From Escherichia coli (GTDB lineage Bacteria; Pseudomonadota; Gammaproteobacteria; Enterobacterales; Enterobacteriaceae), in the NCBI RefSeq assembly GCF_003334255.1, contig NZ_QOWU01000006.1: a stretch of DNA of 64,000 nt. One strand, 5' to 3'. This document shows, piece after piece, positions 6,591-45,853 of this stretch; position 1 is the stretch's first letter, and each line of letters begins with the position of its first letter. A program made the translations under genes and the position numbers. A model generated the notes under the pieces. It did no database searches and was not told where the DNA came from. It saw only the letters and a program-made list of their open reading frames with translations.

Positions 6591-7313
6591 TTAAGAGACG
6601 TGCTGCAAAAATTCCTGCAAGCGCTGGCTCGGCGGGTTCTTGATCAACACCTGCGGATTGCCATCTTCCGCAATCCGGCCTTTGTCGATAAAGATCAGCC
6701 GCGAAGCTACTTTCTCGGCAAAACCGATTTCGTGGGTCACGATCACCATCGTCATCCCTTCTTCAGCCAGATCCTGCATAACCTTCAGCACTTCATGGCG
6801 CAGTTCCGGGTCAAGAGCGGAAGTCGGTTCATCAAACAGCATCATTTTCGGCTTCACCGCCAGCGCGCGGGCAATCGCCACACGCTGCTGTTGACCACCA
6901 GAAAGTTCGGAAGGGTAGTGATGTGCACGTTCTGCCAGACCGACTTTCGCCAGCAGCTCACGTGCCAGTTTTTCCGCCTCTTCTTTGTTCGCGCCACGCA
7001 CGCGTAGCGGGCCAAACATGACGTTTTCCAGCGCTGTCAGATGCGGGAAGAGGTAAAACTGCTGGAACACCATACCTGCTTCCTGGCGAATCAGGCGCTC
7101 GTCAACTTTCGGATCGTTAACCTTCAGGCCATCGACAATCAGATCGCCGGAGGTGATTTCTTCCAGTTTGTTGATGCAGCGCAGCAGGGTCGATTTACCG
7201 GAACCGGACGGCCCGATAATCACCACGACTTCGCCCTGGGCAATGTTCAAATCGATATTGTGCAGCACCTGGGTTGGGCCAAAGTGCTTGGAGACGTTTT
7301 TAAATTCAATCAC
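6591..7313 (-). CDS. glnQ: Glutamine ABC transporter ATP-binding protein GlnQ
   Basis: 240 aa; Walker [13 protein letters not shown] signature LSGGQQQRV, Walker [13 protein letters not shown]. Confidence 0.95.
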
Positions 7314-7969
7314 AGGATTTTCATCCTTCTTTCCAGACGACGCAGAATAAAGCTCAGCACCAGGGTAATAATCAGATAGAACACCGCCACGGCGCTCCAG
7401 ATCTCAAGGGCGCGGAAGTTACCGGCAATAATTTCTTGCCCCTGACGGGTCAGTTCCGCCACGCCGATCACAATAAACAGCGAGGTGTCTTTAATGCTGA
7501 TGATCCACTGGTTACCCAGCGGCGGCAGCATACGACGCAGTGCCAGCGGTAAAATGACGTAGCGAATGGTTTCCCAACGTGAAAGACCGAGCGCCAGTCC
7601 TGCTTCACGAAAACCTTTGTGGATAGACAGCACCGCACCACGCGTGATTTCCGCAATATACGCGCCGGAGTTGATCATGATGGTGACCACCGCCGCAGTA
7701 AATGGGTCGATGCGTAAGTCGTTAAACGCCATCGGCAGGGCGAAATAAATAAACATCACCTGGACGACGATAGGTGTGCCGCGGATCACTTCAATAAAGA
7801 CCAGCGCGACGTGGTTGGCTATCCAACCTCCGAAGGTGCGTGCAAAACCTGCCAGCAATCCGATTACCAGACCGCCTGCCAGACCGAGGACCGAAATCCA
7901 CAGGGTCATTTTGGCACCTTCAATCAGAAGCGGAATGGCAGGCCAGATGGCACTCCAGTCAAACTGCAT
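7310..7969 (-). CDS. glnP: Glutamine ABC transporter permease GlnP
   Basis: 219-aa polytopic membrane protein with binding-protein-dependent permease signature; stop overlaps glnQ start (translational coupling). Confidence 0.95.
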
Positions 7970-8053
7970 ATGTTGTTCCTGTTACCGTGGTGTAAATAAT
8001 CAAATTCAGGGTAATTAATGGCCCCGGAGCGGGTTTGCGCCCCTCACCCTAAT

Positions 8054-8074
8054 CCTCTCCCCATAGGGGAGAGG
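8054..8074 (-). other. GC-rich intercistronic palindrome between glnH and glnP (CCTCTCCCCATAGGGGAGAGG)
   Basis: Near-perfect inverted repeat inside the 138-bp glnH-glnP spacer; could form a stable stem-loop in the glnHPQ transcript (partial terminator or mRNA stabiliser). Confidence 0.5.
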
Positions 8075-8107
8075 GAACTGCCAGTGCGTTTTACAGGTGT
8101 AGCGTTA

Positions 8108-8869
<762 letters not shown>

Positions 8870-8904
8870 CTATCCACGGGACGATCCCCTGCGTGACATT
8901 CACA

Positions 8905-8924
8905 TATATGAAAAAATCGTGCCA
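8905..8924 (-). promoter_or_regulatory. Sigma-54 promoter glnHp2 (-24 TGGCAC / -12 TTTCA)
   Basis: Minus strand reads CTGGCACGATTTTTTCATAT about 45-65 nt upstream of the glnH ATG; -24 GG element is perfect, -12 deviates from TTGCA. Confidence 0.6.
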
Positions 8925-8997
8925 GTTTTGCAACTCCTTGATTTTTCGAGATGCGGCAAAAACGTGATGCACGATTTATAGGGCAATACCCTGAAGA

Positions 8998-9027
8998 TGC
9001 ACCATTCTGGGGCACCAATCTGGTGCG
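8998..9027. promoter_or_regulatory. Tandem NtrC (NRI) binding sites upstream of glnHp2
   Basis: TGCACCATTCTGGGGCACCAATCTGGTGCGC contains GCACCA-N3-TGGTGC (9012-9026), a good match to the NtrC palindrome, overlapped by a second half-matching copy; about 90 bp upstream of the sigma-54 -24 element. Confidence 0.6.
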
Positions 9028-9257
9028 CTAAAATTGTGCACTCAACACAGTGATTATTTAGCGTAAAACCTGATGAAAAAACAATCTTTATGTAACGATT
9101 GTGTGATGATGTGGATACAAAAAATTTACTTAATCAGCTGGAGATAGCAGATGGATGCACTAAATAAGTGCGTTGAGGTGGGCTGCAAAACAAAACGGCC
9201 TCCTGTCAGGAAGCCGCTTTTATCGGGTACTAAAGTTCTGCACCATCAGCGATGGAT

Positions 9258-9905
<648 letters not shown>

Positions 9906-25233: not shown

Positions 25234-25318
25234 CGTAGGCCAGATAAGGCGTTCACGCCGCATCTGGCGTCTGGAGCAAATGCCTGATGCGACGCTTGTC
25301 GCGTCTTATCAGGCCTGG
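25234..25318. repeat. REP/BIME cluster between convergent fsaA and moeB
   Basis: CGTAGGCCAGATAAGGCGTTCACGCCGCATCTGGC and GCCTGATGCGACGCTTGTCGCGTCTTATCAGGCC. Confidence 0.9.
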
Positions 25319-44336: not shown

Positions 44337-44620
44337 AACTTCCCGACGCAAAGTGATTAAAAGGGAGCCAATACAGGCAAGTCGTTGAGAATAAAGTGCA
44401 GGTTAAACTGGGTAAAGCGGCATCGTCTTATTTCCCTCAAGCGGCCTGTTTACGGTGGGTGATTGTAACGGGCATAGGTTAAATAAAACTTAAAGAAAGC
44501 GTAGCTATACTCGCAATAATGTAAGAATGTGCTTAACCGTGGTTTCAGCTACAAAATTCGCTTTCTCGTTAGCTGCGCTTTTATTAAACTCTGCGCGATT
44601 ATTATTGGCGAAGAAATTGC

Positions 44621-45853
44621 ATGCAAAATAAATTAGCTTCCGGTGCCAGGCTTGGACGTCAGGCGTTACTTTTCCCTCTCTGTCTGGTGCTTTACGAATT
44701 TTCAACCTATATCGGCAACGATATGATTCAACCCGGTATGTTGGCCGTGGTGGAACAATATCAGGCGGGCATTGATTGGGTTCCTACTTCAATGACCGCA
44801 TATCTGGCGGGCGGGATGTTTTTACAATGGCTCCTGGGGCCGCTGTCGGATCGTATTGGTCGCCGTCCGGTGATGCTGGCGGGGGTGGTGTGGTTTATCA
44901 TCACCTGTCTGGCAATATTGCTGGCGCAAAACATTGAACAATTCACCCTGTTGCGCTTCTTGCAGGGCATAAGCCTCTGTTTCATTGGCGCTGTGGGATA
45001 CGCCGCAATTCAGGAATCCTTCGAAGAGGCGGTTTGTATCAAGATCACCGCGCTGATGGCGAACGTGGCGCTGATTGCTCCGCTACTTGGTCCGCTGGTG
45101 GGCGCGGCGTGGATCCATGTGCTGCCCTGGGAGGGGATGTTTGTTTTGTTTGCCGCATTGGCAGCGATCTCCTTTTTCGGTCTGCAACGAGCCATGCCTG
45201 AAACCGCCACGCGTATAGGCGAGAAACTGTCACTGAAAGAACTCGGTCGTGACTATAAGCTGGTGCTGAAGAACGGCCGCTTTGTGGCGGGGGCGCTGGC
45301 GCTGGGATTCGTTAGCCTGCCATTGCTGGCGTGGATCGCCCAGTCGCCGATTATCATCATTACCGGCGAGCAGTTGAGCAGCTATGAATATGGCTTGCTG
45401 CAAGTGCCTATTTTCGGGGCGTTAATTGCGGGTAACTTGCTGTTAGCGCGTTTGACCTCGCGCCGCACCGTACGTTCGCTGATAATTATGGGCGGCTGGC
45501 CGATTATGATTGGTCTGTTGGTCGCTGCTGCGGCAACGGTTATCTCATCGCACGCGTATTTATGGATGACTGCCGGGTTAAGTATTTATGCTTTCGGTAT
45601 TGGTCTGGCGAATGCGGGACTGGTGCGATTAACCCTGTTTGCCAGCGATATGAGTAAAGGTACGGTTTCTGCGGCGATGGGAATGCTGCAAATGCTGATC
45701 TTTACCGTTGGTATTGAAATCAGCAAACATGCCTGGCTGAACGGGGGCAACGGACAGTTTAATCTCTTCAACCTTGTCAACGGAATTTTGTGGCTGTCGC
45801 TGATGGTTATCTTTTTAAAAGATAAACAGATGGGAAATTCTCACGAAGGGTAA
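44621..45853 (+). CDS. mdfA: MFS multidrug efflux transporter MdfA (Cmr)
   Basis: 410 aa, 12-TM MFS; N-terminus [30 protein letters not shown]. Confidence 0.95.

Follow-up and report, generated by a model that had tools for sequence, protein, structure and literature searches.

The nitrogen-regulated promoter glnHp2 of Escherichia coli, with family-wide conservation of its off-consensus -12 element and of its enhancer-IHF-promoter geometry

The feature at positions 8905-9027 of the DNA analysed here (a stretch of 64,000 nucleotides from Escherichia coli, hereafter the window) is, with near certainty, glnHp2, from which the glutamine ABC-transporter operon glnHPQ is transcribed under nitrogen control. 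It is the known promoter itself and no mere relative, so it is already known, and its main features hold nothing new. glnHp2 is one of the model promoters that served to establish how DNA bending and promoter strength act in enhancer-dependent bacterial transcription, and its dependence on sigma-54 and NtrC, its occupancy in vivo and the involvement of IHF have been shown by published experiments. We give the exact coordinates of its elements, show that their combination is non-random, and show that the elements, their spacings and an off-consensus T at -14 are conserved across the Enterobacteriaceae. Judged from the aligned sequences, the conservation of this T and of the enhancer-IHF-promoter geometry across the family is what we add to the known promoter, together with a non-conserved third NtrC-like site at -135 and an unassigned, conserved GTGCA at -75 to -71. 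The original prediction, made from the DNA letters, named the promoter, its sigma factor, its activator and its target operon, all in agreement with the published data and the sequence. A sequence-only reading had recovered a real, experimentally validated regulatory region at the right coordinates, and none of the evidence that we met contradicts the identification.

dps, with its stop at 9258, and glnH, with its ATG at 8854 on the minus strand, are separated by 400 bp, and the feature lies in this spacer. The open reading frames and the RefSeq annotation of identical DNA place glnH at 8854-8108, glnP at 7969-7310 and glnQ at 7313-6591, all on the minus strand, so that the operon driven by glnHp2 spans 6591-8854. 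Many E. coli genomes, K-12 derivatives included, match the 701 bases around the promoter at 100% identity, and 5422 of 5426 complete genomes contain them. The dps-glnH region is likewise 100% identical to that of K-12-type E. coli, and the whole regulatory region is identical to that of MG1655. Compared with glnHp2 of E. coli K-12 there is no sequence difference, and the motif string equals that in Table 1 of Bonocora et al. (PMC4591121).

The window is colinear with MG1655, save for a few SNPs elsewhere. Two further published sigma-54 ChIP-seq motifs (PMC4591121) were located in it, both on the plus strand: OS07 (TTGGCGAAGAAATTGCA, in the rcdA region) at 44605-44621 and OS08 (TATGCACGTTTATTGCA, upstream of potF) at 54656-54672. 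Both lie approximately 90-98 bp beyond the positions given by the MG1655 offset, so that, at some point between 9 and 44 kb, the window carries a short insertion that MG1655 lacks. The Rfam families that scored past the gathering threshold were RybB sRNA (48924-49002, minus strand), the REP-derived naRNA4 (25238-25315 and 61700-61780, both plus) and ES036 (60678-60720, plus). Just upstream of the region of the second glnH promoter, glnHp1, the dps terminator hairpin, GCGGCUUCCUG...CAGGAGGCCGU followed by UUUUGUUUUG, occupies 9183-9220 on the minus strand with a folding energy of -19.4 kcal/mol; a simple terminator scan did not report this obvious hairpin.

The sigma-54 element reads TGGCACG (8924-8918), ATTT and TTTCA (8913-8909) on the minus strand, as had been claimed. 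The -24 element TGGCAC (8924-8919) carries its GG at -26/-25, the N5 spacing is exact, and the -12 element retains the TT and A of the class together with the C (8910, -13). The sole mismatch to TGGCAC-N5-TTGCA is the G-to-T change already pointed out in the -12 element, a T at 8911 (-14) in place of the consensus G. This T does not exclude the site from the sigma-54 promoter class, and the literature lists the site as bound and confirmed. Searching the 64-kb window for TGGCAC-N5-TTGCA with at most one mismatch returned a single match, exactly at glnHp2, where 2.0 are expected by chance.

Published work allows the transcription start to be placed. Mao et al. 2007 (PMC1865078) describe a fragment spanning '-289 to +63 of glnHp2' and give both primers; each primer end independently gives +1 = 8897 (minus strand), which we use as the literature numbering and which puts the glnH ATG at +44. 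Under the rule of Bonocora et al., by which the start follows the motif centre by 19 bp, it falls at 8898, 44 bp from glnH. Their ChIP-seq site OS06 (PMC4591121) has the motif C-TGGCACGATTTTTTC-A on the minus strand with its centre at 847290, which corresponds to window position 8917 using the U00096.2 offset; they report a distance of 44 bp to glnH and mark the site as having experimental confirmation in EcoCyc. In the same study only five genes that have an intergenic sigma-54 site upstream rose in expression on sigma-54 overexpression, and glnH was one of them. Transcription from glnHp2 requires sigma-54 and NtrC-P (PMC1865078), and in Salmonella the orthologous site TGGCATGATTTTTTCATT was bound by sigma-54 in ChIP-chip, with expression of glnHPQ 7.1-fold higher in the wild type than in an rpoN mutant (PMC3844500).

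Upstream of the promoter lie two dyad-symmetric, consensus-like NtrC sites, as expected of an NtrC enhancer, and both are conserved above background. Site 1, cGCACCAgatTGGTGCc, occupies 9027-9011 on the minus strand (centre 9019, -122) and has two mismatches, both at the outermost positions. Site 2, TGCCCCAgaaTGGTGCA, occupies 9014-8998 (minus; centre 9006, -109) and has one mismatch to TGCACCA-N3-TGGTGCA. The two overlap by 4 bp, with their centres 13 bp apart, and their positions are those reportedly given in the abstract of Claverie-Martin and Magasanik 1991 (PNAS). The palindrome of the original prediction is present as GCACCA-gat-TGGTGC at 9026-9012 (minus), the 'atc' of its spacer being the same palindrome read on the plus strand. 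Its placement about 90 bp further upstream also fits, since the near edge of the palindrome is 87-88 bp upstream of TGGCAC. The second site had been called half-matching, and this was wrong: it matches 16 of 17 consensus positions against 15 of 17 for site 1, so site 2 is the better one. An NtrC ChIP-seq peak has been assigned to glnHPQ (Brown et al. 2014; PMC4066584). Assuming U00096.2 numbering, an older numbering suggested by the position of their glnK peak, its interval maps to window positions 8888-8968, 30-110 bp promoter-proximal of the NtrC sites.

A third NtrC-like site, TGCACAATTTTAGCGCA (9040-9024, minus; centre -135, 13 bp from its neighbour; three mismatches), was considered and rejected as a conserved element. 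It is present in Escherichia, the sequence outside Escherichia is unrelated, and its conservation is 0.55 against a background of 0.57, a value reached by 11666 of 20000 random column sets. Elsewhere in the window, CGCACCATTATGGTGCG at 55892-55908 is a nearly perfect NtrC-like palindrome whose two mismatches are both terminal. It is situated just inside an open reading frame starting at 55858, and the potF sigma-54 site lies approximately 1.2 kb upstream of it; the palindrome holds no enhancer position relative to any promoter identified in the window.

Between the NtrC sites and the promoter is an IHF core, AATCAAGGAGTTG, at 8943-8931 (minus; -46 to -34), which the original prediction had not named. 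It is a perfect match to WATCAANNNNTTR and ends only 6 bp from TGGCAC. Looping at glnHp2 needs the IHF-induced bend (PMC2709558). An IHF footprint is cited in PMC8407004, where IHF ChIP-qPCR was also performed at glnH; we mapped the amplicon to 8901-9006, with the IHF core inside it. Binding of IHF at glnH was below the high threshold in GeF-seq (PMC8407004). In most other genera the core is AAACAA-N4-TTG and not AATCAA, a poorer match to the consensus, and the perfect IHF consensus is thus an Escherichia feature.

Taken singly, none of these motifs stands out from a sequence of this size. Beside the single sigma-54 match, the 64-kb window holds six NtrC-like sites (3.6 expected) and six IHF cores (2.6 expected), all within chance, and this is what speaks for the motifs having met by coincidence with no promoter function. 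Their combination is far beyond chance. We simulated the window 300 times with a composition-matched first-order Markov model and searched for NtrC-like sites (at most two mismatches) 60-160 bp upstream of sigma-54-like matches. Among the approximately 650 sigma-54-like matches in the 300 simulated windows, none had even one such site at that distance, whereas at glnHp2 the real window has two, with an IHF core between them and the promoter. The full composite occurred in none of the 300 simulations, conservation across 80 species extends to the elements and their spacings alike, and both sigma-54 and NtrC are found there in vivo (PMC4591121, PMC4066584). Chance co-occurrence is refuted by the published ChIP-seq and primer-extension data, and we give it a negligible probability.

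The conservation was determined from the glnH loci of 80 Enterobacteriaceae species (Escherichia, Citrobacter, Salmonella, Klebsiella, Enterobacter, Kluyvera, Cedecea, Kosakonia and other genera), for which the 336 bp upstream of the ATG were aligned, giving 81 sequences. The mean majority-base frequency was 0.97 for the sigma-54 positions, 0.96 for the IHF core, 0.86 for NtrC site 2 and 0.82 for NtrC site 1, against 0.57 for the other 106 columns between -1 and -150. No random set of non-element columns out of 20000 reached the observed conservation for any of the four elements. This sampling from non-element columns replaced a test in which the mask of each element was slid over -1 to -150, which says nothing about the NtrC sites, since the mask often falls on other conserved elements.

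The spacings are fixed. Measured from the left half of NtrC site 1, TGGCA is 102 ± 1 bp away in 70 of the 79 sequences, and the remaining distances, of 89-91 bp, are the same measurement catching NtrC site 2. In each of the 67 sequences that match the pattern CAA-N4-TTG of the IHF core, 16 bp separate it from TGGCA. Among divergent E. coli strains, polymorphisms are seen only at unspecified positions (the site 1 spacer, the N4 within the IHF core, and the DNA between elements), and the sole one within NtrC site 1 is in its spacer.

These invariant distances bear on how IHF acts. It might mainly recruit or stabilise the sigma-54 polymerase on a weak promoter, rather than serve enhancer looping, by bending the upstream DNA against the alpha C-terminal domains. 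The IHF bend at the Pseudomonas Pu promoter brings upstream DNA to the alpha C-terminal domains in this way, and such a role is compatible with the identification as glnHp2. It would fit the position of the core, 6 bp from TGGCAC and at an invariant distance (16 bp, CAA to TGGCA), as well as the weakness of the promoter (bioRxiv 10.1101/086108). However, the effect of IHF has been attributed to looping (PMC2709558), and the enhancer-promoter distance is also invariant at 102 ± 1 bp, as expected if the helix face matters for looping. We therefore consider recruitment as the main role of IHF rather unlikely, and favour delivery of NtrC through the bend.

Within the sigma-54 element, both the -24 GG and the -13 C occur in 81 of 81 sequences. 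The base at -14 is T in 80 of them and C in one (Buttiauxella), and is never G. On these counts the weak -12 element looks selected, and we infer that it has probably been kept by selection to tie activation to the correct geometry of enhancer and bend. The original prediction held that the weak -12 element brings strong dependence on the activator and on DNA bending. The first part was loosely put: all sigma-54 promoters depend absolutely on an activator, so this dependence is not specific to a weak -12 element. What a weak -12 element does predict is low occupancy by the closed complex, and therefore a need for the enhancer-bound NtrC to be delivered efficiently and in the correct phase through the IHF bend. 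The T-to-G change at -12 has reportedly been made already, by Claverie-Martin and Magasanik (J Mol Biol 1992) and by Carmona et al. (PNAS 1997).

Would a G serve equally well at this position? The T could be a neutral flaw that is simply tolerated and means nothing for regulation, and the scores of the site, which lie in the range of consensus promoters (PSSM scores of 10.8 in E. coli, PMC4591121, and 20.8 in Salmonella, PMC3844500), are consistent with that. So is the Salmonella sigma-54 ChIP signal at glnH, which at 16 is among the higher ones (PMC3844500) and sits awkwardly with weak binding. Yet a neutral site should drift and an advantageous G should appear, whereas T is fixed in 80 of 81 sequences, with no G, beside non-element columns that average a 57% majority base. 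Functional data also argue for a weak promoter. In a synthetic-enhancer system glnHp2, cited there as a previously reported weak sigma-54 promoter, gave lower expression than the glnAp2, nac and glnK promoters, and a remote enhancer did not cross-activate it (bioRxiv 10.1101/086108). In E. coli ChIP-seq its FAT (fold above threshold) was 6, against 17-21 for prpB, glnK and the gltI-region site (PMC4591121). Neutrality of the T is accordingly improbable, and we retain the reading of a selected, weak -12 element.

A weak -12 element could also act in the direction opposite to that of the original prediction, by loosening the block on spontaneous isomerisation and so raising activator-independent basal transcription. 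The general biochemistry of -12 region mutants points this way, and work from the Gralla and Buck laboratories is reported to have found that the -12 region keeps sigma-54 closed complexes silent. Against such leakiness, glnHp2 without its own enhancer behaved like a no-promoter control (bioRxiv 10.1101/086108) and the promoter is described as NtrC-P-dependent (PMC1865078). We regard a loosened block as very improbable, and keep to a weak -12 element that makes activation depend on enhancer and bend.

Upstream of the NtrC sites lies the sigma-70 promoter glnHp1, whose region (9048-9120, minus) was found by locating in the window the CRP site sequence given by Mao et al. 2007. This degenerate CRP site, at 9120-9099, is centred at -61.5 of glnHp1 and falls in a conserved block; its position places the glnHp1 start near 9048, upstream of the NtrC sites. 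The transcript from glnHp1 consequently reads through the NtrC sites and glnHp2. A sigma-70 scan of 8800-9300 found no promoter-like site, a result that is uninformative on glnHp1, which is published as very weak and helped by CRP. The absence of a strong sigma-70 consensus agrees with the 'very weak' binding of sigma-70 holoenzyme reported at glnHp1 (PMC1865078).

Downstream of the start, the 5' UTR of the glnHp2 transcript (8855-8896, minus) contains a conserved block, GCAGGGGATCGTCCCGTGGAT, and the Shine-Dalgarno sequence AAGGAA. The block, at 8872-8892 (+6 to +26), is nearly invariant across genera, and within the 5' UTR GCAGGGGATCGYCCCGTGGAT is almost invariant; the first transcribed bases vary. 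The GCAGGGGATCGTCCCGTGGAT block can form a GGGG/UCCC hairpin and has GGA motifs close to the Shine-Dalgarno sequence. A structured RNA element in this 5' UTR is nevertheless unsupported, as the fold is no stabler than that of shuffled sequences (z = -0.16), and variation in the stem across the aligned sequences is one-sided only (U to C).

A close comparison is with glnAp2 of E. coli. Both form tandem sigma-70/sigma-54 promoters with the sigma-70 promoter (glnAp1 in that case) upstream, both have two strong NtrC sites approximately 100-140 bp upstream, and in both CRP activates p1 and represses p2. They differ in that glnHp2 has an IHF site and is the weaker, glnAp2 giving higher expression (bioRxiv 10.1101/086108). 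The NtrC sites of glnAp2 are separate (-108 and -140; PMC1865078), whereas those of glnHp2 overlap, 13 bp apart, and glnAp2 has low-affinity 'governor' sites. In architecture, glnHp2 resembles Klebsiella nifH, Pseudomonas Pu and E. coli pspA, where an IHF site lies between an upstream enhancer and the promoter and productive contact needs a bend (PMC2709558). The activators of those promoters are NifA, XylR and PspF, and in glnHp2, unlike in them, the IHF site abuts the -24 element.

The evidence fits the textbook model, which proposes the following course of events. Sigma-54 RNA polymerase would bind TGGCAC-N5-TTTCA as a closed complex, which the T at -14 would make weaker or shorter-lived than at consensus promoters. 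Under nitrogen limitation NtrB would phosphorylate NtrC, and NtrC-P would oligomerise on the overlapping sites centred at -122 and -109. With IHF at -46 to -34 sharply bending the DNA between enhancer and promoter, the enhancer-bound NtrC ATPase would touch the polymerase and drive formation of the open complex, with transcription starting at 8897, which leaves 43 nt before the glnH ATG. In other conditions, expression would be supplied by the CRP-stimulated upstream sigma-70 promoter glnHp1.

One further conserved stretch lies between NtrC site 2 and the IHF site, the pentamer GTGCA at 8972-8968 (minus; -75 to -71). Each of its bases is found in 75-80 of the 81 sequences, a level of conservation equal to that of the promoter. 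The GTGCA of NtrC site 2 is 30 bp upstream of it, and a moderately conserved TTGC is found nearby at 8983-8986 (-89 to -86). In 47 of the 81 sequences the region fits TGCACCA-N4-TGGTGCA, with a spacer 1 bp too long, at 2-4 mismatches. We know of no factor assigned to the pentamer. Three helical turns from its counterpart in site 2, it may be a third NtrC half-site, of low affinity and governor-like in the manner of glnAp2, or a target for the repression of glnHp2 by CRP.

The fixed T at -14 and the pentamer can be read together, the T as a selected, deliberately weak closed complex and GTGCA as an undescribed protein contact. We offer this joint reading tentatively, as a possibility that we think will more probably fail than hold; we found no earlier description of the fixation of the T across the Enterobacteriaceae or of a contact at GTGCA. 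With a closed complex kept weak in this way, glutamine uptake would respond only to correctly positioned NtrC-P plus IHF. The constancy of the -12 'defect' across the family, together with the exact geometry of enhancer, bend and promoter, supports the view of weak sigma-54 promoters as tuned, not degenerate.
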